Sequence record: SRR22947725_5541
Reading direction: 5' to 3' (one strand)
Length of the DNA: 56,283 bases
Shown: positions 39,094 through 50,499 of the stretch, in pieces
Position numbering within the stretch: position 1 is the stretch's first letter
Layout: each line of letters starts with the position of its first letter
The notes under the pieces: generated by a model
The model's input: only the letters and a program-made list of their open reading frames with translations
What the model was told of the DNA's origin: nothing
Database searches by the model: none
Translations under genes and position numbers: made by a program

Positions 39094-39762
39094 ATGTCGG
39101 ACGTTTTTCCAAAATGGACGAATAAACTGCCTATCCGCGTTATCGTCGGACTCATCCTTCTGGGGGGAGCAACGGTGGTTGGCTTGACCTATTATGCGAC
39201 ACCTAAATACACGCGGGTGGGTTACCAACCCGTCCAACCCGTGGCTTTTTCGCATGCCATCCATGCAGATCAGCTTGGTCTCGACTGCCGTTATTGTCAC
39301 AACGGAGTGGAATCCTCCTGGTTCAGCAACGTTCCTGCAGCCTCGGTTTGTATGAATTGTCACAATCAGGTCAAAAAGGACGATCCTAAACTGGCCATGG
39401 TCAGAGAGAGCTACGACTCGGGTGAGCCCATCCCTTGGGTGCAGATACATAAAGTTCCAGACTATGTTTATTTCAACCATTCGGTGCACGTGAATCGCGG
39501 ATTTTCCTGCGTTGAATGCCACGGCCCTGTCAACAAAATGGATGAGGTATATCATGCGAAACCATTCGGTATGAGTTTTTGTCTCGAATGCCACCGAAAT
39601 CCTGCTGCCAAAATCCGGCCTCTGGACAAGATTACCGACTTGGATTGGAAATGGGATGAGGATCCCCAGAAGGCTTCCGAATTACAACAAACCCATGGAG
39701 ACCAAATGGTCCATGATTGGAAAGTTGAATCCCTTGTAAACTGTTCTGCGTGTCATCGATGA
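39094..39762 (+). CDS. actA: Alternative complex III subunit ActA (pentaheme cytochrome c)
   Basis: N-terminal TM helix, QPVQPVAFSH..H, and five CxxCH motifs (CRYCH, CMNCH, CVECH, CLECH, CSACH). Confidence 0.93.
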   Translation: MSDVFPKWTNKLPIRVIVGLILLGGATVVGLTYYATPKYTRVGYQPVQPVAFSHAIHADQLGLDCRYCHNGVESSWFSNVPAASVCMNCHNQVKKDDPKLAMVRESYDSGEPIPWVQIHKVPDYVYFNHSVHVNRGFSCVECHGPVNKMDEVYHAKPFGMSFCLECHRNPAAKIRPLDKITDLDWKWDEDPQKASELQQTHGDQMVHDWKVESLVNCSACHR

Positions 39763-42700
39763 AAGACCTAACGTATTCCCCAAAAACATCTGGACCTGCT
39801 TACTGGCGCAGTCTGGACGAGCTGACGGAGACTCCTGAGTTTCGTCAATGGGTGGAAAAAGAATTCCCCGAAAGCACTTTGGAAGCTCCCAGTGGTCAGT
39901 CTCGTCGCGATTTCGTCAAAATCATGGGAGCCTCTTTTCTTCTTGGAGGGATGGGCCTGACGGGTTGTCGGCGTCCGGAGGAAACGATTGTGCCGTTTTC
40001 CAAGATGCCTCAAAATTACGTGCACGGTGTGCCGCAATATTTTGCAACTTCCATGCCCACACGTGACTCCGCCGTACCTTTATTGGCCAAGTCCAGCGAT
40101 GGGAGGCCTACCAAAGTTGAAGGCAATCCCGATCTGTCATTTGGCAAGGGAGGCACGGATGCTTTCGCGCAAGCTTCATTGCTGAATCTCTACGATCCGG
40201 ATCGCTCCAAAAAATTTCTCAAAGAAGGGAACGCCTCGAGCCGTTCAGCTGCCCTCGGTGGGTTGAAAGCTATCAGTGGCAAGTTTCAAGGAAACAAGGG
40301 AAAAGGACTTCATTTCCTTGTCCAGCCGACAAGCTCGCCTTCTCGTAATCGTCTTGAAATGATGATTCGCGAACAACTCCCTGAAGCCAAATGGCACGGA
40401 CATGAGCCGGTTGATTTCAGAAATGCTTCCAAGGCTTCCGTGAAGTCTTTCGGAAAGGCATTGCGCCCAATGCCTCATTTCGACAAAGCCAAGGTGATCT
40501 TCTCCCTGGACAATGACTTCCTTGGAGCTGAGCAGGAATCTTATTCCCACATACGTGGTTATGCTGATGGTCGTCGATTGAAAGAGACAGAGGATCATCA
40601 TTCAACGATGAATCGACTTTACGCAGTCGAAAGCCTAATGACACTGACTGGCTCAAATGCTGACCATCGTCTGCGAGTCACTTCTGGTCAGGTTTTCAGC
40701 GTTGCAGCTGCAATGGTCGAAGAAATTTTCAATCAGATCGGAAATAGTGATGACGATGCAGGCAGTCCCATCACCGCCTTGCGAAGTTCGCTTCGTGAAA
40801 AAGCCAAAGCAGTTGCTGTCGATCCCAAATGGATCACGGAATCGGTGAAAGATCTGGTTGCTCACCAAGGCGAATGTCTCGTAGTTGCTGGATACCGCCA
40901 GCCTGAATCTGTTCACCAGCTGGCCACTGCACTCAACGTTCTGCTCGGTAACCTCGGGGAAACAGTGTCTTATGTCTCGGATAACTCTATCTCCTACGAC
41001 TCTCTCGAGGCGTTAAAGGGGGAATGTGATGCGGGTAGTGTGGACACACTCGTTGTTTTAGGTGGAAATCCAGTTTATGACGCCCCTGCTGACTTCGATT
41101 GGAAAATCACTCAGCGCAAGGCCAAAACTGTGGTGCGTCTGGGTTATTACGACGATGAAACTTCCGATGGTTGTGACTGGCACTTGCCAATGGCTCATTA
41201 TCTCGAGTCCTGGGGTGATGCGCGGTCAGGTGATGGAAGCTACCTCCCCGTCCAGCCATTAATGGCTCCTCTTTTCGATGGTCTGACTGATCTGGAGGTA
41301 ATTGCCCGTATTGCTGGCAATGATGAAATCAAGCCTTACGATATCGTCAGAACAACCCTCAGAGGAGTTGTAGGGGAAGCTGGTTTTGAAGGTCAATGGA
41401 AACAGTTTCTGCATGATGGTTATCTGGAATCTCTCAAGCCAGAAAATGTGGATATAAAAGCGGACACTTTCGATTGGTCAGCTGTGACTCGTGAAGTGAG
41501 TCAGGCGATCACCGAAGCAGATCAATCCTCAGCGGCATCCAAAGATTCTCTCGAAGTCGTCTTTCACCGTGATTCCAGCATGGATGACGGCCGTTTCAAC
41601 AACAACGGTTGGATGCAGGAGATGCCCGATCCAATGACCAAGATTACTTGGGATAATGTGGTGTTGATGAGCCGACGTACTGCGGCCGAGCTGGGGGGGA
41701 TCAAGAACAAGGAGATGGTAGAAATCGTCCTTGACGGTCGCAAAGTTCAGGGGCCTGTCTGGATCCAGCCTGGTTTTGCAGATTTTTCTCTGGGGCTTGC
41801 CCTCGGTTATGGGCGTACTCACAGCGGTCGTGTTGGTGGGATCGAATCTGAATCGGTCGGCTTCAACGCGTATGCCATCCGTGCATCCAAAAACAGCAAC
41901 TTTGGAACTGGGGCCAAGCTCAACCGCTTGAACCGTATCTTCGATATTTCATGCACTCAGGACCATTGGTCGATGGAAGGACGTGCGATTGTTCGTGAGG
42001 CAAACCTCGAGCAATTTGAAGAAAAACATGATTTTGCCCAGAACATGGATCTGGAGGCGCATACAAGCCATATCCCTCACGATGATGAAGGGAATCCAGC
42101 AGAAATCTACGAGCATCCATACAAGGCCCGCCCCTCCACGAGCAGCGACATTCATCAGTGGGGAATGGCTATCGATCTGCAGACCTGCGTGGGTTGTTCT
42201 TCCTGTGTGGTTGCTTGCCAGAGCGAAAACAACATTCCAATTGTTGGCAAGGAGCAAGTAGCCAACAGTCGTGAAATGCACTGGATGCGTATTGACAGGT
42301 ATTACAGCGGTAATCCTGAAACACGCGGTAATGCAAGCAATCTGATCATGGATGATGAGCAGCCTTATCAGGAATGGATTGATGATCCTCAAGTCGTCAA
42401 TCAACCGATGATTTGTCAGCACTGCGAAAGTGCTCCTTGCGAAAGTGTTTGCCCAGTGAATGCGACGGTTCATGATCACGAAGGACTCAATGTCATGGCT
42501 TACAACCGTTGTGTCGGAACCCGCTATTGCTCCAATAACTGTGCATGGAAAGTGCGTCGTTTTAACTATTTTGACTACAACAAGCGTCCCATCGACCAGC
42601 TTTATGAAGGACCGCTTGCCTCTCGGCCTGAAGAGGACATCGATCTCATAGAAATGGCCAAAAACCCTGATGTCACTGTTCGCATGCGTGGCGTCATGGA

Positions 42701-43127
42701 AAAATGCACCTTTTGTACTCAGCGTATTGAGCAAGCCAAAATTGCCAAAAAGGTTGCTGCCAGAGATTCAGGAGACATTGAAGTGCCTGACGGGACCATC
42801 AAAACCGCCTGCCAACAGGCTTGTCCGGCAGATGCGATTGCATTCGGTAATTTACTAGACCCTGAAAGCAAGGTATCCAAACTCAAGAAGAGCCCGCGTA
42901 ACTACGCCGTACTTGGATTTCTGGATACCAGGCCACGCACGACTTATCTGGCAAAGATTCGTAATCCGAACAAAAACATGCCCGACTATCATACCATGCC
43001 ATTGAGCACTTTGGAGTATACAGAGAACATGGGAAGTCCGTTTGAGGAACATGGCTCATCCCACGGAGGGGAAGCCCACGAGAGTGGACATGCGGTTGAA
43101 ACTCACTCAGAAGGAGGGCAACACTGA
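39759..43127 (+). CDS. actB: Alternative complex III subunit ActB (Tat-exported molybdopterin-oxidoreductase-like domain plus Fe-S domain)
   Basis: YWRSLDEL, Tat motif SRRDFVK, lipobox LTGC, four C-terminal Fe-S motifs including [11 protein letters not shown], and [16 protein letters not shown] overlap with actA. Confidence 0.94.
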
Positions 43128-44554
43128 TGTCATCGCCTGGCACACATCATTCAGTTGAAATTGCACCTCCGCCTCGAGAAATCGAGCGCGAACCATTGGT
43201 CCTGAACAATCGGTCCCTCGCTTGGATCTCTGACCAAATCGCCGGTATCATTGAAGGTAAAACACCAAGGTGGTGGTGGGTGATGATGGCCTGCAGTCTC
43301 CCATTGATGCTCATGTGCTTTGCCATGATCGGGTATCTGATCTCTACAGGTGTCGGAGTCTGGGGTTTGAACCATCCGATCGCATGGGGCTGGGCCATTG
43401 TGAATTTCGTGTTCTGGATTGGTATTGGTCATGCTGGAACTTTGATTTCAGCGGTACTTTTTCTATTGAGGCAGAAATGGAGGACATCGATCAACAGGGC
43501 AGCTGAGGCGATGACAATTTTTGCAGTGATGTGTGCGGGGATTTTTCCAGGCATCCACGTGGGACGTATCTGGTTTGCCTGGTGGTTGTTTCCTCTCCCA
43601 AACGCAAATGGACCCATATGGCCGCAGTTTAGATCTCCTCTCTTGTGGGACGTATTCGCGGTATCCACTTATTTCACCGTCTCATTTCTCTTCTGGTATA
43701 TGGGATTGATTCCTGATTTAGCAACCATCCGAGACCGTTGCAAAGGGTTCATTCGAAAATTCGCCTACGGTTTATTCTCATTAGGATGGACAGGATCCAA
43801 CCGTCATTGGAGCAATTATGAAAAGGCTTATCTCCTTTTGGCTGGCCTATCCACACCGCTCGTTTTGTCGGTGCACAGTATCGTTTCATTTGATTTCGCG
43901 GTATCGCAGTTGCCGGGTTGGCACACTACTATCTTCCCGCCTTATTTCGTGGCGGGAGCCATTTTCTCAGGTTTCGGTATGGTGCTGACTTTAATGATTC
44001 CCTTGCGTTCGATTTTCAAGCTAGAAGACTTGCTGACGATCCGACACATCGAATTGATGTGTAAGGTGACCTTAGCCACCGGCACCATTGTAGGATACGC
44101 CTATGGCATGGAATTTTTCATTGCCTGGTATGGCGGTAACCCTTACGAAGCTTATGCTTTCCAGAATCGTGCCTTCGGCCCTTACTGGTGGGCTTATTGG
44201 ATCATGATTTCGTGCAATGTGATCACCCCTCAGTTTTTCTGGTTCAAGAAACTGCGAACGAACGTTGTGGTCGTTTGGGTGTTATCCATTTTTGTGAATA
44301 TTGGCATGTGGTTTGAGCGGTTTGTGATTGTTGTCACTTCGCTGCACCGAGACTACCTGCCGGCTAACTGGGGATATTATTCTCCAACCAAAGTAGATGT
44401 GTTGACCTTCATCGGTACATTTGGATTGTTCATGGTTCTGTTTCTCTTGTTCATCAGATTCCTGCCATTGATCGCCATTTCTGAAGTGAAGGGAGTCACC
44501 AATCAGGCAGATCCACATCATCCGCTGGGTGGTGCGAAAGGAGGTCACCACTAA
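43127..44554 (+). CDS. actC: Alternative complex III subunit ActC (NrfD family, quinol-binding)
   Basis: [42 protein letters not shown] and [12 protein letters not shown]. Confidence 0.95.
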
Positions 44555-45093
44555 TGAGTGATAATTCTCAAGCATACGGCCTTTTGGCTGAATTTACGAC
44601 GCCTGCGGATGCCATGCATGCCGCGGAGAAAATCAGGGATGCTGGGTATTCTCGATGGGATGTTCACACTCCATTTCCCATTCATGGAATGGATGATGCG
44701 ATGGGGCTAAAAGACTCCAAAGTGGGTTGGTTCTCTTTCTGTGGTGGAGCGACAGGTTTCACCGCAGGTTACTTAATGGTTTGGTTCATGAATAGCGTCA
44801 ACTACCCAATCGTTGTGGGAGGTAAGCCACTGTTTAGTCCAATGTTTCCCTTTCCGGTTGTCTATGAAATGACCATTCTACTCTCCGCTTTTGGAGCGTT
44901 GTTTGGAATGTTAATTCTGAATCGGTTGCCTAAACTACATCATCCTTTGCTAAAGAACCGTCGTTTCAAGGGGGCGACCCATGACAAATTTTACGTGATT
45001 ATTGAAACGTCGGATCCCCGTTACATCGAATCGGAGACACGCGAACTGCTTGAATCGACTGGCTGTAAACACATGGAAATGGTGGAGGACTGA
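44554..45093 (+). CDS. actD: Alternative complex III subunit ActD (DUF3341)
   Basis: LAEF, TPFPIHGMDDAMG, VGGKP and YEMTIL. Confidence 0.92.
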   Translation: MSDNSQAYGLLAEFTTPADAMHAAEKIRDAGYSRWDVHTPFPIHGMDDAMGLKDSKVGWFSFCGGATGFTAGYLMVWFMNSVNYPIVVGGKPLFSPMFPFPVVYEMTILLSAFGALFGMLILNRLPKLHHPLLKNRRFKGATHDKFYVIIETSDPRYIESETRELLESTGCKHMEMVED

Positions 45094-45094
45094 G

Positions 45095-45709
45095 ATGCGA
45101 TATTTTATAACCCTTTACATATTATTAATCGTGGCCTTCGTAGGTGTGGCCGGATTTCGTGGCACCATTTCACGTAAACCTCCCATCGAGGTGTTCCCGG
45201 ACATGGATCGGCAAATGAAGTTGCGTCCGCAGGAGCCAAATCGTTTCTTTGGGAACCGAAGAAGCTCTCAACCATTCGTACCAGGCACGATTGCTCGTGG
45301 AATGCCTTACAAGGATATCCCTCTGAACACAGGTCGAATAACAGGTTCAACCAACTGGGTTGAAATCAGCCCGGTTGAAATTACTGAAGCTGTCATGGAG
45401 CGTGGACACCAGCGCTACGATATTTATTGCACACCCTGTCATGGTGCGGCTGGTGATGGCAAGGGGATCACTGGCAAATATGGGATGGTAGCCGTGGCCA
45501 ATTTTCACGATCCGCGTCTGGTATCCATGACCGATGGGGAAATATTCAATACCATTACCCACGGTAAGAATCTGATGGGCCCTTATGGTGCCAATATCAA
45601 AATCGAAGATCGTTGGTCTATCATCGCTTATCTTCGTGCGCTCCAGCGCAGTCGGTTGTCCACAATGGACGATGTGCCCGAACCACAAAAAGCAGCTCTT
45701 CAAAATTAA
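45095..45709 (+). CDS. actE: Alternative complex III subunit ActE (monoheme cytochrome c)
   Basis: PDMDRQ, GTIARG, CTPCHG, IFNTITHG..LMGPY and DRW.IIAY.RALQ. ATG at 45095. Confidence 0.9.
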   Translation: MRYFITLYILLIVAFVGVAGFRGTISRKPPIEVFPDMDRQMKLRPQEPNRFFGNRRSSQPFVPGTIARGMPYKDIPLNTGRITGSTNWVEISPVEITEAVMERGHQRYDIYCTPCHGAAGDGKGITGKYGMVAVANFHDPRLVSMTDGEIFNTITHGKNLMGPYGANIKIEDRWSIIAYLRALQRSRLSTMDDVPEPQKAALQN

Positions 45710-45715
45710 CGACCT

Positions 45716-46963
45716 ATGAGTTCTGAAACATCCAATGCATCTGAACCCAAGCTGGATCTGGCCAAATGGGCCAAGCTTCCAAACCAACTTATGTTGGGTG
45801 GTGGCATCTTATTGTTGATCGGTTTCCTGTTTCCTGGTTGGCGCGATCAGTTTTACTATAGCTATCTGACCGGTTTCATGTGCTTTTTGAGCCTGACGCT
45901 TGGGTCACTATTTCTGGTTCTCCTGCACCATTTGTTTGATGCCTACTGGTTGGTGCCTGTTCGCAGGTTTCTCGAACATATTGCATGTCTTGCACCCACG
46001 ATGGGATTTTTGTTTCTACCCATCCTGATTTTCTCATCACAAATATATCCATGGATGTCGATTGATCCGAATATTGATCATGCCTTGCATGTAAAAGTGG
46101 CACTCTTCAACAAGAAGGCCTTCTGGATCACCTCAATCGTGCTGTTTGTTATTTGGACGTGGTTGAGCAAAAGTTTACGCAAGCATTCATTGGCCCAAGA
46201 TGAAACGGGGGCAGCTACGCATACACATTCACTGCGCAAATTGGCGGCACCAGGGGTAATCATTTTTGCCTTCACACTCACACTTGGTGTCATTTTCTGG
46301 ATGAAATCGCTGGAGCATCAGTGGTTCTCTACCATGTATGGTGTCTATTACTTTGCCGGCAGCGTCTGGTTGACCCTGGCCACAACTTACTTGCTCACCG
46401 CCATCCTGCAGCGAACAGGGCATCTCGCTCCTGTCGTCACAGACAATACCTACAAAGACATCGGGACATTGTTTTTTGCTTTCACTGTCTTTTATGCCTA
46501 TATCCATTTTTCTCAGTATTTCTTGATATGGAATGCAGCTATTCCCGAAGAAACTTTCTGGTACGTCAAACGTGAGAATGGTATTTGGGAGAGCATCGGT
46601 TATCTGATCATTTTCGGACATTTCTTTGTTCCTTTCCTGGCGATGCTTCGCATAGACGTTAAGAAATCGCTCATCATCATGGGGCCACTTGCCATCTGGG
46701 CCTGGTTGATGCACTACGCAGACATGACTTACAACATCAAACCAGTGCTGGACCCAGAAGGCGGTAGCATCACTCTGAGTGGATTTGTCCAAAGTATTGC
46801 AGCCTTGGCTTTCATGGGCGGTGTTTTATCCAAAGGCTTTTTAAAATCATTTATCAGTCATCCTCCTTTCCCTCAGAAGGACCCTCGCATCGCTGAGGCC
46901 ATGGGAGTTTATGTAGAATTGGAATCCGAGGCGGCTAATAAGACTAAATCTGCGGACGCATGA
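45716..46963 (+). CDS. actF: Alternative complex III subunit ActF
   Basis: Polytopic membrane protein with VRRFLE, WMKSLE..WFSTMYG, Y.HFSQYFLIW and PEET.WY..R. Confidence 0.9.
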   Translation: MSSETSNASEPKLDLAKWAKLPNQLMLGGGILLLIGFLFPGWRDQFYYSYLTGFMCFLSLTLGSLFLVLLHHLFDAYWLVPVRRFLEHIACLAPTMGFLFLPILIFSSQIYPWMSIDPNIDHALHVKVALFNKKAFWITSIVLFVIWTWLSKSLRKHSLAQDETGAATHTHSLRKLAAPGVIIFAFTLTLGVIFWMKSLEHQWFSTMYGVYYFAGSVWLTLATTYLLTAILQRTGHLAPVVTDNTYKDIGTLFFAFTVFYAYIHFSQYFLIWNAAIPEETFWYVKRENGIWESIGYLIIFGHFFVPFLAMLRIDVKKSLIIMGPLAIWAWLMHYADMTYNIKPVLDPEGGSITLSGFVQSIAALAFMGGVLSKGFLKSFISHPPFPQKDPRIAEAMGVYVELESEAANKTKSADA

Positions 46964-47003: not shown

Positions 47004-47390
47004 ATGAGAACAAGCATCAGTAATAAACAGAATATGCGAGGCGTTGCCTTCGTTTATTTCGTGGGGATCATGGCCACGTTTTTCATCATGGCCTTTCTTA
47101 TTTGGGTGACCAAGGAATTCACAGAGCCCAGAGCAATCGCTGCAAATCGCGCGAATGAGCGTGCAGAAAATTTGCAAACTGTCAACGAAGCAGTAGCTCC
47201 CTTGTTGAATGAATACGGTTGGCAAGATCAGGAAAAAGGTTTTGTAAGGGTGCCCATCAAACGCGCGATGGAACTCACGGTGAAAGAGTGGCAAAATCCT
47301 GCCAAAGCCAGATTGGAGTTAATATCCAGAATGGAAAAGGCAACTGCGCTCCCACCACCGCCACCCGAAGAACCCAGTGCTTTTGAATAA
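47004..47390 (+). CDS. Small single-TM protein following actF (ActG-like)
   Basis: One TM helix and the motif LNEYGWQD..KGFVRVPIKRAMEL, which I recognise from small proteins downstream of actF. Alternative start at 47034. Confidence 0.65.
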   Translation: MRTSISNKQNMRGVAFVYFVGIMATFFIMAFLIWVTKEFTEPRAIAANRANERAENLQTVNEAVAPLLNEYGWQDQEKGFVRVPIKRAMELTVKEWQNPAKARLELISRMEKATALPPPPPEEPSAFE

Positions 47391-47438
47391 TAAGCCGGTC
47401 AATATTAAATCAATGACGTTGCTGAACAAGTAAACGGT

Positions 47439-48911
47439 ATGGACGTTACTCAATCATCTAAATCACCATCTGACTGGACGGAAATCGATTCATCTTATCG
47501 TTTTCCAACACTCTTCCTTGCATCTAAAGCAGTAGGTTGGCTTTTGTTAGGAAGTATTTTTTCTCTCATTGCATCCATTAAGATGCACTCACCAAGTTTT
47601 CTGGCAAGCTGCCCATGGGTAACCTACGGGGTCATGATTCCGGCTGCCTTGAACGCGGTCGTTTATGGATTTGCTCTTCAAGGTGCATTTGCCGCCTTAC
47701 TCTGGATCACCATGCGATTGGGGCAAGTCAAGTTGGTTGGGCCTGGTTACCTTTTCATTGGATCCGCGCTTTGGAACGTCGGTGTACTTCTGGGGGTCAT
47801 CGGTATCATGGCAGGGCATAGTTCGGGCCACACTTATCTGGAAATGCCCGGGTTCGTTTCGCCCATCTTATTTGCTGCCTACACGCTCATTGGAGGAATG
47901 GCGCTGGTGACCTTTCACAAACGACAAGTCCGCGAGCTTTACCCATCCCAGTGGTTTATTTTTGCCGCCCTCTATTGGTTTCCATGGATATTGACTGCTG
48001 GCAGTTACTTGCTCGTTATCTCCCCTGTCAGGGGAGTGACTCAAATGATCATTGGTGGTTGGTATGCATCCGGATTGAATGTCATCGTACTCGGTTTTGT
48101 CGGCATTGCCATCATTCAATACATGTTGCCCAAGTTAACCAAGCGCGACTTACACAATGGTTATCTTTCATTGTTTTCCTTCTGGATCATTATGCTTTTT
48201 GGTGGATTCACTGGTCTGTTTCCCGGTCAATCACTTCCATCCTGGGTGGGATCGCTCAGCGCTGTATGCAGTGTCTTCGTTGCATTTGCCTGGTTGGTTC
48301 TCGCCTACAACATCTATCGAACCATTGGAGGCGCTTCCGGTAAATCGGGTGGTCTTTCCTACAAATTCATTTATTTCTCCGCTGCTGCGGGGCTGCTATC
48401 CGCCGTGTTGACCGCCTGGGCTTCCCGAGCCTCTGCTGCAGATGTCGTTCAGTTTACTTTATTCCTTCCTGGCCTGAAATGGTTGCATCTTTACGGGTTT
48501 GTTGGAATGGGATTACTCGGGTGCATTCACTATTTTCTTCCAAAAGTTACCGGAACCGAATGGTCGAGACCGGGGCAATGGACTGCTATTTTCTGGACTT
48601 ATGCCATTGGGACAAGTGGGGTGGCAATCGCCTTTCTGGTTGGGGGATGGAAGCACGGTAAAGGTTTAATTGACCCAGAAACTCCTTTCATGGACGTGGT
48701 CCGTGAAGGTATTGCCCCTTTCGTGCGAATCAGCACCGTCGGTGAATTGCTAGTTTTCGTAGCAGCCGCCTTACTCTGCTGGAACGTCATAACCTTGTTT
48801 TGTAGAACCTACTGCTCCTGCTTTTGTTTGGGAGGCCTTTCACAGGACAAGGCTGGAACTTCCAGTGAAACAAAGAAATCTCAACCCAAAAAAAGTTCGA
48901 AAAACAAATAA
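47439..48911 (+). CDS. cbb3-type oxidase subunit I (CcoN) homolog apparently lacking heme/CuB histidine ligands
   Basis: About 12 TM helices with CcoN-like landmarks (TYG..P...NA..YGF, YLE, LY.S.W, WY, Y.LPK, SFW, LP.W, FT, YGF, Y.LP). It is followed by a ccoO-like gene. Confidence 0.82.
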   Translation: MDVTQSSKSPSDWTEIDSSYRFPTLFLASKAVGWLLLGSIFSLIASIKMHSPSFLASCPWVTYGVMIPAALNAVVYGFALQGAFAALLWITMRLGQVKLVGPGYLFIGSALWNVGVLLGVIGIMAGHSSGHTYLEMPGFVSPILFAAYTLIGGMALVTFHKRQVRELYPSQWFIFAALYWFPWILTAGSYLLVISPVRGVTQMIIGGWYASGLNVIVLGFVGIAIIQYMLPKLTKRDLHNGYLSLFSFWIIMLFGGFTGLFPGQSLPSWVGSLSAVCSVFVAFAWLVLAYNIYRTIGGASGKSGGLSYKFIYFSAAAGLLSAVLTAWASRASAADVVQFTLFLPGLKWLHLYGFVGMGLLGCIHYFLPKVTGTEWSRPGQWTAIFWTYAIGTSGVAIAFLVGGWKHGKGLIDPETPFMDVVREGIAPFVRISTVGELLVFVAAALLCWNVITLFCRTYCSCFCLGGLSQDKAGTSSETKKSQPKKSSKNK

Positions 48912-49801
48912 TGAATCAGGGCCCCTTACTTTTTTTAAGCGTGCTTTGCGCCATGGCTGCCTCTTGGATGGGCTTCGTGCTGATGCCTCAGGTTCAGCTC
49001 GGTAACCAGTCCACACGACTCGTCAAAGAAATTGGCAGGCATTATCCTGCTGAGCGTGGAGGCATAGCGGTTAAAGGTCACGATGTTTACCGCGCTGCGG
49101 GCTGTGTGTCTTGTCACACCCAACAGGTCCGACAAACCGGTTTCATCTTCGATATCGTGTTGACTGATGCTGGCGATTTCACCGACTTGGTTACCTCACT
49201 CGTTCAACAAGCCAATGGTGATCTGTCCGATCAACAGGCCGCAGATATTGTTGCTAATGCACCGAAGACAATCCTGGAGGGTGTGTCGAAACAAACGGTG
49301 GACAGTATCGCTTTTTTGTTCAAAGACAGCGGTGGCAAAGTTGCTGCGAACATCCGACCCATTGGACCGGATATTGATCGTGGATGGGGACCTCGCCAGA
49401 CCGTTGGACTGGATTATTTGTTTGATGAACCCGTATTAATGGGCAGCCAACGTATTGGTCCTGATCTGGCAGATGTTGGCTCTCGTCTGGCAGATAGAAA
49501 TTGGCATTTACTGCATCTTTACCACCCTCGCACGGTTGTTGAAAAGTCGATCATGCCCGCTTATCCCTATCTATTTGAAACACGTGAAATCGGCGATTCA
49601 CCTTCTCCAGACGCCTTGGCGCTGAAAGGTGAGTTTGCCCCTGAAGAGGGCATGGAAGTAATACCCACCTCGGAAGCAAACGCTTTGGTTGAATACCTGC
49701 TTAGCCTCCGAATCTTTCACCCCGTTTTTGAAGCCCCCTACATATTTACCCAAGCTGAACCCAGTGAAAACATCGATTCGGAAATGGAGCCGGCTGAATG
49801 A
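48911..49801 (+). CDS. cbb3-type subunit II (CcoO/FixO)-like monoheme cytochrome with a ~70-aa insertion
   Basis: TM anchor, GHDVY...GCVSCHTQQVR, GSQRIGPDLA, WHLLHLYHPR, SIMPAY (axial Met) and ALVEYLLSL. TAATG overlap with the upstream gene. Confidence 0.88.
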   Translation: MNQGPLLFLSVLCAMAASWMGFVLMPQVQLGNQSTRLVKEIGRHYPAERGGIAVKGHDVYRAAGCVSCHTQQVRQTGFIFDIVLTDAGDFTDLVTSLVQQANGDLSDQQAADIVANAPKTILEGVSKQTVDSIAFLFKDSGGKVAANIRPIGPDIDRGWGPRQTVGLDYLFDEPVLMGSQRIGPDLADVGSRLADRNWHLLHLYHPRTVVEKSIMPAYPYLFETREIGDSPSPDALALKGEFAPEEGMEVIPTSEANALVEYLLSLRIFHPVFEAPYIFTQAEPSENIDSEMEPAE

Positions 49802-50424
49802 GTGCAAAGCCTAAGAAAACTGTCCACAAGAAAAAGCACGCAGATGAACGTGAACCTGGGGTACATCAGGAACCAGTTCCCGTCCTGTTATTTGTCATTT
49901 TGCTGCTTCTTGCCTTTTGGGGAATGATGTATCTGCACACCAATGCAGGTGGTTTCAATCGCTATGTTTATGGCCCATTTGAGTCATATGCCATGGTTTC
50001 CGACGTCCAGCCGGGTAGTTCGGATGACCCAATGAAGCGTGGTGCTGATGTTTACAAAAGCATTTGCCTCCCCTGTCACCAAGCATCAGGTTTGGGAGCT
50101 CCCGGGCAATTTCCTCCTCTTGCTGGTTCCGATTGGGTGAATGTAGAAGGCCCCAACCGCATGCTTCGTATCGTAATCAACGGTCTGAGCGGTCCTGTTG
50201 AAGTCAACGGGCAAAGTTGGTCTGGTGCCATGCCCGGGTTTGGCGATGTGATTGCTTCTGACGAAGACCTGGCTGCTGTGATCACGTATGTCCGTAATTC
50301 ATGGGGTAACGAGGCGAGTGTTTGCACTCCTGAGGAGGCAGCATTAGTGCGATCAGAATCAGCGGATCGTGGTCGCCCATGGTCCAGCCCTGAATTACTC
50401 AACCTCTCTGTTGAAGTCCAGTAG
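49798..50424 (+). CDS. Membrane-anchored class I monoheme cytochrome c
   Basis: TM helix, CLPCHQ, FPPLAGS, GL.GPVEVNG, AMP and AAVITYVRNSWGN. ATGA overlap. Confidence 0.9.
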   Translation: MSAKPKKTVHKKKHADEREPGVHQEPVPVLLFVILLLLAFWGMMYLHTNAGGFNRYVYGPFESYAMVSDVQPGSSDDPMKRGADVYKSICLPCHQASGLGAPGQFPPLAGSDWVNVEGPNRMLRIVINGLSGPVEVNGQSWSGAMPGFGDVIASDEDLAAVITYVRNSWGNEASVCTPEEAALVRSESADRGRPWSSPELLNLSVEVQ

Positions 50425-50499
50425 CCAACACTGAGTCATCTAGCTCAAGTTAGAATCGCTAGTTTACATCACGGGCTTCTTACGCCATCAATAATATCC

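Follow-up and report, generated by a model that had tools for sequence, protein, structure and literature searches.

A homologue of the ribosomal protein bL12 C-terminal domain inserted beside the haem motif of a CcoO-like cytochrome from marine Verrucomicrobiota

Why is a domain that resembles the factor-binding head of the ribosomal stalk found inside a respiratory cytochrome? The question is raised by an open reading frame (ORF) in SRR22947725_5541, a DNA stretch of 56,283 nucleotides that is referred to here as the window. The ORF encodes a CcoO/FixO-like cytochrome c subunit in which residues 79–147, flanked by CVSCHTQQVRQTG and GPDIDRGWG, look like the C-terminal domain (CTD) of ribosomal protein L7/L12 (bL12). 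A preliminary description of the gene, made from the letters alone, had proposed both that an L7/L12 CTD-like domain is inserted in this cytochrome and that it acts as an acidic docking module next to the haem. The first proposal is borne out. The insert is a homologue of the C-terminal, factor-binding domain of bL12, a conclusion that is close to certain. The second proposal fares less well, and is considered below together with other explanations of what the domain might do.

The homology is carried by sequence, profile and structure comparisons that all agree. The translation quoted in the preliminary description matches the ORF read from the window. When the whole protein is scanned, the Pfam family Ribosomal_L12 (PF00542) matches residues 80–145 over positions 1–65 of its 67-position profile, with an expectation value (E) of 5.3e-5 and 23.9 bits, against a cut-off of 25.9. 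The excised insert (76 aa) scores 27.9 bits (E 2.9e-6) and passes this cut-off. NCBIfam TIGR00855 (L12) gives 21–23 bits against a cut-off of 84.4, aligned at profile positions 50–123 for the whole protein and 59–123 for the insert alone. Compared with PDB sequences by phmmer, the single insert matches bL12 chains at E 7e-5 to 6e-4 (1ctf_A at 2.3e-4), in ungapped alignments that extend over the full domain. This agrees with the near-gapless alignment first reported against Escherichia coli bL12; the E. coli sequence quoted there was not used here. A profile of 44 standard-length inserts from related loci, aligned through DNA references (the A2 profile), matches 1ctf_A at E 2.8e-14 and 56.7 bits, and a further 17 bL12 or mitochondrial L12 sequences precede the first unrelated protein (E 0.23). 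Taken alone, 37 of the 44 homologous inserts match PF00542 at E ≤ 0.01 (best 2.5e-11), and the insert of G002, a relative with a complete genome, does so with 43.3 bits.

The predicted structure points the same way. An AlphaFold2 model of the insert, made from the A2 profile, has a predicted local distance difference test (pLDDT) value of 90.8 and a predicted topology of β-α-α-β-α-β. Its top Foldseek matches in the PDB are bL12 CTDs, namely 8yeq (template modelling (TM) scores 0.89/0.94) and 1ctf (0.82/0.90), and the modelled domain lies on both with a root-mean-square deviation (rmsd) of 1.1 Å at about 30% identity. The ClpS fold had been named as an alternative description of the domain. ClpS chains appear first at rank 12 of the Foldseek matches, with E between 1e-2 and 1e-1, identities of 7–18%, and rmsd values of 2.6–3.5 Å, and the Pfam scan of the CcoO-like protein returned no ClpS match; a closer kinship to ClpS than to bL12 was rejected on these grounds. 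A search with residues 76–150 in a protein atlas gave no usable match.

The source of the domain is less clear than its identity. Native rplL sits elsewhere in relatives, apart from ccoO, and in G002 PF00542 matches nothing but rplL, with 94 bits, and the CcoO insert, with 43 bits. Against the A2 profile, bL12 proteins of the same lineage score 49–51 bits, compared with 56.7 bits for E. coli bL12. Since the own-lineage proteins do not score above that of E. coli, these scores point to no donor.

The protein that carries the insert belongs to the CcoO/FixO type. It matches Pfam FixO (PF02433) at E 7.7e-25, in two stretches, and PDB CcoO chains at E 1e-19. It scores 80.2 bits with NCBIfam ccoO (TIGR00781), where the cut-off is 200.65, so that the equivalog level is not reached, and 90.7 bits with PRK14487, below the cut-off of 218. 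All 50 aligned CcoO-like homologues have C65, C68, H69, S213, M215, and P216; CxxCH occurs in all 113 CcoO-like proteins examined and [STN]xMP in 110 of them. With its haem attachment motif, methionine ligand, and helix at residues 4–24, the protein has the features of the membrane-anchored monohaem cytochrome c of CcoO/FixO, and, because both haem motifs are conserved, it is therefore still a haem c protein. By its CcoO-like topology, everything after the anchor helix would be periplasmic, as would also be expected from haem c attachment, which requires the periplasm.

The insert directly follows the haem-binding motif, as had been noticed at the outset. In alignments with the CcoO chains 8smr_F and 3mk7_B, residues 49–75 of the query correspond to residues 49–75 of the chain, and the match resumes at query residues 149–151 with chain residues 74–76. 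The break at canonical residues 75/76 therefore defines the inserted segment as residues 75–149, which starts six residues past His69 of CxxCH. In insert-less orthologues the gap is closed exactly, with the junction reading CH.QQVRP.G.G.D..RGWG.

This architecture is not peculiar to one assembly. Of 674 clusters of homologous proteins, the best 120 were inspected: CxxCH and GPDL lie about 114–126 residues apart in 116 of them, and the insert architecture is present in all that have both landmarks. The same arrangement occurs at 80 loci from separate genome assemblies. The stretch itself is present in 19 sequencing runs, which belong to 10 studies and all carry a marine label. One DNA contig, which may be the window's own source, covers all of 47400–50450. 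A DNA contig from another study covers 48887–49404, that is, the whole insert with both junctions, and a 3.5 kb contig from a metatranscriptome library covers 47400–49439. In RNA run X14, there are cover gaps across 49236–49439. No joints or indels were seen in the contigs over the locus, so the suspicion of an assembly chimera, raised when the domain was first described, can be set aside. Precomputed Pfam annotation of homologues gives PF02433+PF00542. One 296-aa CcoO-like homologue, P0006, bears the NCBI name ‘ribosomal protein L7/L12’, an annotation error that stems from the insert.

The host is a marine member of Verrucomicrobiota. According to their record titles, 14 of the 80 related loci come from metagenome-assembled genomes (MAGs) of other phyla (for example, Bifidobacteriaceae, Acidoferrum, Bordetella, and Haliangiales), and two are titled only ‘bacterium’. 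Mis-binning or mislabelling of these MAGs seems likely, as their gene content matches the verrucomicrobial cluster.

The cytochrome gene stands in an operon for alternative complex III (ACIII), whose features are listed in Table 1. Pfam identifies ActA as a multihaem cytochrome c, ActB (1125 aa) by its Fer4 clusters, ActC as NrfD, and ActE as a monohaem cytochrome c; ActD corresponds to PF11821 (E 5e-64), and ActF was recognised by its position and its conservation from locus to locus. The small orf128 matches no family in a Pfam scan. It has an N-terminal hydrophobic stretch, and most related loci, with or without the insert, have a tblastn match to it in the same place. The stop codon of the CcoN-like gene overlaps the CcoO start by 1 nt, and the start of the downstream cytochrome c gene overlaps the CcoO stop by 4 nt. 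Insert-type loci were taken as the best hits, 80 related loci in each of which the insert was located. The downstream cytochrome c is present in 70 of them, with C90, C93, and H94 invariant, and ActC–F, CcoN, and CcoO lie on one strand in all 57 that have at least 8.5 kb upstream. The CcoN-like protein, the CcoO-like protein, and the monohaem cytochrome c form a cbb3-derived three-gene module fused to the end of the ACIII operon.

Table 1. Features of the locus in window coordinates, with the basis of each assignment
Feature	Position	Strand	Basis
ActA–ActF, alternative complex III genes, directly upstream	39094..46963	+	Pfam; ActF by position
orf128, 128 aa, between ActF and the CcoN-like gene	47004..47390	+	tblastn conservation
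CcoN-like subunit I homologue, 490 aa, no canonical His	47439..48911	+	Pfam COX1 E 5e-23; PDB CcoN E 1e-12
CcoO/FixO-like monohaem cytochrome c subunit with insert	48911..49801	+	296 aa; Pfam FixO, NCBIfam ccoO, PDB CcoO chains
N-terminal membrane anchor helix, residues 4–24	48920..48982	+	helix in full-length AlphaFold2 model
CxxCH haem c attachment motif (C65, C68, H69)	49103..49117	+	conserved in alignment
Inserted segment, residues 75–149	49133..49357	+	alignment break against solved CcoO; insert-less orthologues
bL12 C-terminal-domain-like core, residues 79–147	49145-49354	+	Pfam, profile, model
Met215, putative sixth haem ligand (S-x-M-P motif)	49553..49555	+	conserved; aligns with PESKMP of solved CcoO
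Membrane-anchored monohaem cytochrome c, 208 aa, CcoP-like	49798..50424	+	Pfam Cytochrome_CBB3 E 2.2e-11

The CcoN-like partner has lost the residues on which oxygen reduction depends. It scores 64.9 bits with NCBIfam ccoN, for which the cut-off is 583. Six columns for the ligands of haem b, haem b3, and CuB were defined on the canonical fused CcoNO of three relatives (motifs RPLHTN, YGHNA, GPHH, and GHVHAG). At these columns, the window protein has A, S, F, P, L, and W, compared with histidine at all six in the canonical fused CcoNO, and it has other residues at all ligand motifs of a solved CcoN (9g6b_A). Among the 75 insert-bearing loci that could be assessed, including the window, 63 have no histidine at the ligand columns, eight have one, two have two, and two have three; none has more than three. 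The only conserved histidine of the CcoN-like protein is H50 (74 of 75), which is not at a canonical ligand position. The six histidines that mark subunit I of a cbb3-type (C-family) haem-copper oxygen reductase are thus missing, and with all of them lost the module cannot be an oxygen reductase. Ratios of nonsynonymous to synonymous substitution rates (dN/dS) for the CcoN-like gene are nevertheless 0.04–0.39 in six close pairs, low values which indicate that it is intact, under purifying selection and not decaying. A 2024 survey of the superfamily presents gNOR as the first family that replaces even one active-site histidine (PMC11214002); a family without any is therefore unusual. In the complete genome of G002, the only PF00115 matches are two A-type COX1 proteins (439 and 412 bits) and the ligand-less CcoN-like protein (92 bits), and aerobic respiration in this relative probably relies on aa3-type oxidases. 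The locus is absent from the nearest genome, G001 (79% complete), in which no COX1 match was found and FixO reaches only 16.6 bits; the comparisons of the locus therefore drew on G002 and on fetched loci.

The distribution of the insert can be compared with that of the ligand histidines. The insert-bearing form is absent from a sample of 301 genomes of the phylum, which is quality-biased (its ‘same class’ genomes are listed as 98–100% complete) and is suspected to under-represent the MAG-rich order in which the insert occurs. In many genomes of other families, the orthologue matches the full-length model in two abutting pieces, 1 to ~80 and 151 to ~285, which means that these orthologues have no insert. 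Of 12 such loci from other families, 11 have the Act–CcoN–CcoO–cytochrome c cluster and nine have a CcoN with six histidines. Within the window's own order, represented by 151 genomes, a match was found in 128; it runs unbroken across the insert in at least 50, and many others are insert-less. Fourteen insert-less loci of this order were fetched and their CcoN could be assessed in 13, where it has six histidines in one and none to two in the other 12.

The order of events was examined on a FastTree phylogeny of 109 CcoN-type proteins, with tips drawn from the best 80 hits and 32 picked loci, canonical fused CcoNO as the root, and changes counted by the Fitch method. As a rough count, the full histidine set was lost in a single change, and insert presence requires ten changes. 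Cross-tabulation gives 79 tips that carry the insert and are histidine-poor, 15 that are histidine-poor without the insert, 10 that have six histidines and no insert, and none that combine the insert with six histidines. The suggested link with a His-less CcoN therefore holds in one direction: every insert-bearing tip is histidine-poor, but the 15 histidine-poor tips without an insert show that the reverse does not follow. The insert is found only in the histidine-poor part of the family, and is patchy there. Loss of the ligands probably came first, the insert was gained afterwards, and repeated loss or movement of the insert followed.

The insert also varies in form. Including flanks, the inserted segment (76 aa in the window) measures 57 aa in 17 of the 80 loci, 68–77 in 49, 79–80 in three, 82–86 in nine, and 100 in two. 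The short form (about 54 aa, or 57 with flanks) lacks the helix 2 region, and its 17 loci fall in one part of the tree (for example, L046:9001-9801, + strand). Two loci of the window's order, L117 (1035-2216, − strand) and L118, have a tandem pair of L12-like domains at the same insertion site. In L119 (3516-4949, + strand) and L120, a nested insertion of about 150 residues interrupts the L12-like domain after strand 1; it is rich in Ala, Leu, and Gly and contains ALAGD-like repeats. Partial forms occur in L121 and L122. Finally, the insert-less, histidine-poor locus L098 (9172-10119, + strand) has a low-complexity insertion of about 97 residues, rich in Ala, Pro, and Ser, between the positions of window residues 192 and 198.

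Although the sequence of the insert changes quickly, it is constrained. Over 50 standard-length loci, mean pairwise identity is 32% for the insert, compared with 64–68% for the cytochrome core, and the insert evolves about twice as fast as the core. Its best-conserved columns are G77, L84, G88, T89, N90, P118, A130, G141, and A142; four of them, L84, G88, P118, and G141, do not vary even when native bL12 is aligned with the insert. The positions that the insert keeps are mainly fold-determining. Among six unsaturated close pairs, dN/dS of the insert is 0.045–0.20 in five and 0.50 in one; two further pairs, each of the window with a relative, yielded no value because their synonymous sites were saturated. 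The insert is under purifying selection, which argues for some use.

Taken together, the best explanation overall, held with moderate confidence, is that the insert is an optional accessory L12-like domain beside the haem of a ligand-less, ACIII-linked module. In canonical enzymes, the haem-proximal loop continues towards CcoN. Once CcoN had lost its cofactors, the constraints on this loop would have been relaxed, and it could have become a hot spot for insertion. The domain would be exported unfolded with the haem domain and fold in the periplasm, on the loop by which the chain departs from the haem's proximal side. The L12-like fold would then have been retained and selected while remaining optional, and might shape access to the CcoO haem c or pack against neighbours in the ACIII complex, on an ACIII-attached scaffold whose two c-type haems would still carry electrons. 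The domain would have no catalytic role and no conserved charged docking site. What it does there is a more tentative matter: it is possible that it serves as a steric cap, a spacer, or a contact surface of low specificity near the CcoO haem c.

Several points weigh against this explanation or limit it. The patchy distribution argues that any use of the domain is not essential, and in some lineages the insert may have a specific partner. The counts of ten changes and a single loss are rough, as they come from a FastTree phylogeny of a neighbouring gene with picked tips and several deep supports of 0.5–0.6. The proposed periplasmic location is judged from homology. In the full-length AlphaFold2 model of CcoO, the linkers (residues 66–76 and 152–191) and the haem region have pLDDT values below 50 and the predicted TM score is 0.46, so that the orientation of the insert is not readable from it; a predicted complex of CcoO residues 36–296, two haems, and residues 52–208 of the downstream cytochrome c scored 0.08 with a mark of 0.32, with no contacts given. 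Contigs from RNA libraries only hint at transcription, because DNA may occur in such libraries.

The most serious competitor is a neutral passenger, tolerated in a permissive surface loop and selected only against misfolding. The ten presence/absence changes on the tree fit such a passenger, as do the truncated, duplicated, and interrupted forms and the rapid divergence, and the insertion of L098 in another loop shows that the protein tolerates insertions. However, a mere passenger would not be expected to have dN/dS values as low as those of the cytochrome core, which is what five of the six close pairs show. At least 50 of the 151 genomes sampled from the order retain the fold, as do hundreds of protein clusters, and its duplication to two copies suggests added value. 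Neutrality is, on this evidence, unlikely.

A more ambitious proposal starts from the same loss of catalytic metals. What was left of the scaffold, two c-type haems included, would have become an adaptor for electron exit from ACIII, and the L12-like head would be a partner-selecting dock or gate by the CcoO haem, passing electrons to a new acceptor (an aa3-type oxidase, for example, or a periplasmic reductase). If this were true, a ribosomal domain that recruits factors would have been put to a new use in the periplasm, the recruitment of redox partners. The proposal is doubtful at present, somewhat more so than neutrality.

Doubtful to a slightly greater degree is the idea with which this locus was first described, namely that the insert is a conserved, acidic module for docking, by which a basic redox partner would be brought to the CcoO haem. 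The window itself invites this idea: its insert has a net charge of −6, acidic or neutral residues stand where bL12 has basic ones, a few residues separate the haem ligand from the point of insertion, and the insert is under purifying selection. In the wider family, however, the value of −6 proves to be an extreme. Among 79 insert-bearing homologues, net charge ranges from −6 to +3 with a median of −1, and is positive in 22, a spread that does not support a general acidic docking module. Nor is acidity special to the insert, as the rest of the periplasmic part of the window protein has a charge of −11. The best-conserved columns, read from the alignment and not from a structure surface, are mostly Gly, Pro, Ala, and Leu, with four of them common to bL12, and the insert is missing from 15 histidine-poor relatives with the same operon.

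It is very improbable that the domain has kept a translation-linked role, for example, GTPase binding during co-translational membrane insertion. It does have the fold of the bL12 head that binds factors, and true L12 domains are found in other non-ribosomal proteins as fusions with EF-Tu domains or dynamin-like GTPases. Particular residues of helices 4 and 5 matter for factor binding by bL12. Where native bL12 from the nearest genomes (G001 and G002) has GDKKIPVIKAVREVKAGLGLADAKKLVE, the window has GDFTDLVTSLVQQANGDLSDQQAADIVA, at an overall identity of 29–32%. The lysines and arginines of helices 4 and 5 in these native proteins give way to F, T, S, Q, A, and D in the window; they are not conserved in the family, whose consensus has likewise lost them. 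The basic residues had been reported as lost at the outset, and the comparison with native bL12 upholds this: the insert lacks the basic and hydrophobic surface through which bL12 binds factors. A domain lying between the periplasmic haem c parts, as CcoO topology suggests, would also be kept apart from cytoplasmic GTPases after export.

An artefact, either an rplL–ccoO assembly chimera or a chance ClpS-like resemblance without bL12 homology, can be dismissed almost entirely, since the slightly sub-threshold whole-protein L12 score is outweighed by the recurrence of the architecture in the best 120 of 674 clusters and at 80 loci of separate assemblies, by contigs across both junctions in DNA and RNA-library runs of other studies, and by a profile match to 1CTF at about 30% identity over the full domain, with ClpS far weaker and rplL located elsewhere.

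Regardless of its function, the insert is a clear example of the export and reuse of a ribosomal domain in a periplasmic respiratory protein, and one in which the gain of the domain can be ordered relative to the loss of metal ligands in a partner oxidase subunit. There are consequences for annotation, as genes of this kind are labelled cbb3 oxidase subunits, yet the module of this lineage is unable to reduce oxygen. Genome papers on Verrucomicrobiota take cbb3 genes, which may or may not be of the present type, as a sign of high-affinity oxygen respiration. The natural series within one order, with no, one, truncated, two, or interrupted copies, offers ready-made controls.

The closest known relative of the insert is the bL12 CTD, as in 1CTF of E. 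coli and 8YEQ of Mycobacterium tuberculosis, with which it shares the fold, the β-α-α-β-α-β order of elements, and about 30% identity. The landmarks listed in the preliminary description can be seen against native bL12, and those common to the two are FD.vL, AG, AP..L.EGV.K, and GA.v. In contrast to the ribosomal stalk protein, the insert corresponds to the CTD only. It is embedded in a cytochrome, has neither the N-terminal dimerisation/uL10-binding domain nor the hinge, and has other residues in place of the basic stretches GDKKIPVIKAVREV and GLGLADAKKLVE kept by native bL12. The host protein shares the anchor, CxxCH, GPDL, and S-x-M-P with the CcoO of Pseudomonas stutzeri (3MK7/5DJQ, chain B) and Pseudomonas aeruginosa (8SMR, chain F), and the gene order CcoN–CcoO–cytochrome c is common to cbb3 operons and the window. 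It differs from known CcoO in the 75-residue insertion between canonical residues 75 and 76 and in scoring 80 bits where 200.65 are needed, and the module differs from canonical cbb3 oxidases in its ligand-less CcoN partner and in having its genes fused to an ACIII operon.

Also close are the insert-less ACIII-linked CcoNO(P)-like modules of other families of Verrucomicrobiae. The same ten-gene cluster (ActA–F, orf128, CcoN, CcoO, and cytochrome c) is present in 11 of the 12 loci, and their CcoO belongs to the same subfamily, scoring 130–174 bits with the full-length model outside the insert. Because all six histidines are kept in the CcoN of nine of the 12 other-family loci and in one of the 13 assessable loci of the window's order, these modules may include working oxidases.

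Other bL12 domains outside the ribosome are known. In Mizuno et al. (2019, PMC6375957), phage bL12 CTDs are described at variable positions in larger non-ribosomal proteins, with homologues that lack the domain; repeated acquisition is inferred, and the phage domains keep the residues that contact uL11, EF-G, and EF-Tu. The present insert differs in having lost the contact residues and in having a bacterial periplasmic cytochrome as its host protein; the word ‘cytochrome’ does not occur in the main text of that paper. A profile search of 1.84 billion representatives returned 4761 proteins at E ≤ 1e-3. The top matches (P0121–P0137) are cellular proteins with three to eight tandem, high-scoring L12 domains, some of them fused to EF-Tu domains 2 and 3, to a dynamin-like GTPase, or to PASTA; a 593-aa tandem-L12 protein of Nannocystis pusilla is named ‘ribosomal protein L7/L12’. 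From the phage and tandem proteins together, it follows that the bL12 domain is mobile in general. The initial statement that no description of the fusion was known holds for the literature, as a full-text search, with subscription journals and supplements outside its reach, found no paper on an L12/CcoO fusion or on a ligand-less C-family subunit, but it does not hold for databases, where automatic Pfam and NCBI annotation already displays the fusion. Shuffling of bL12 domains and the CcoO protein are both familiar; a copy of the bL12 domain inside a periplasmic cytochrome, stripped of its factor-binding residues, did not turn up in the literature covered.

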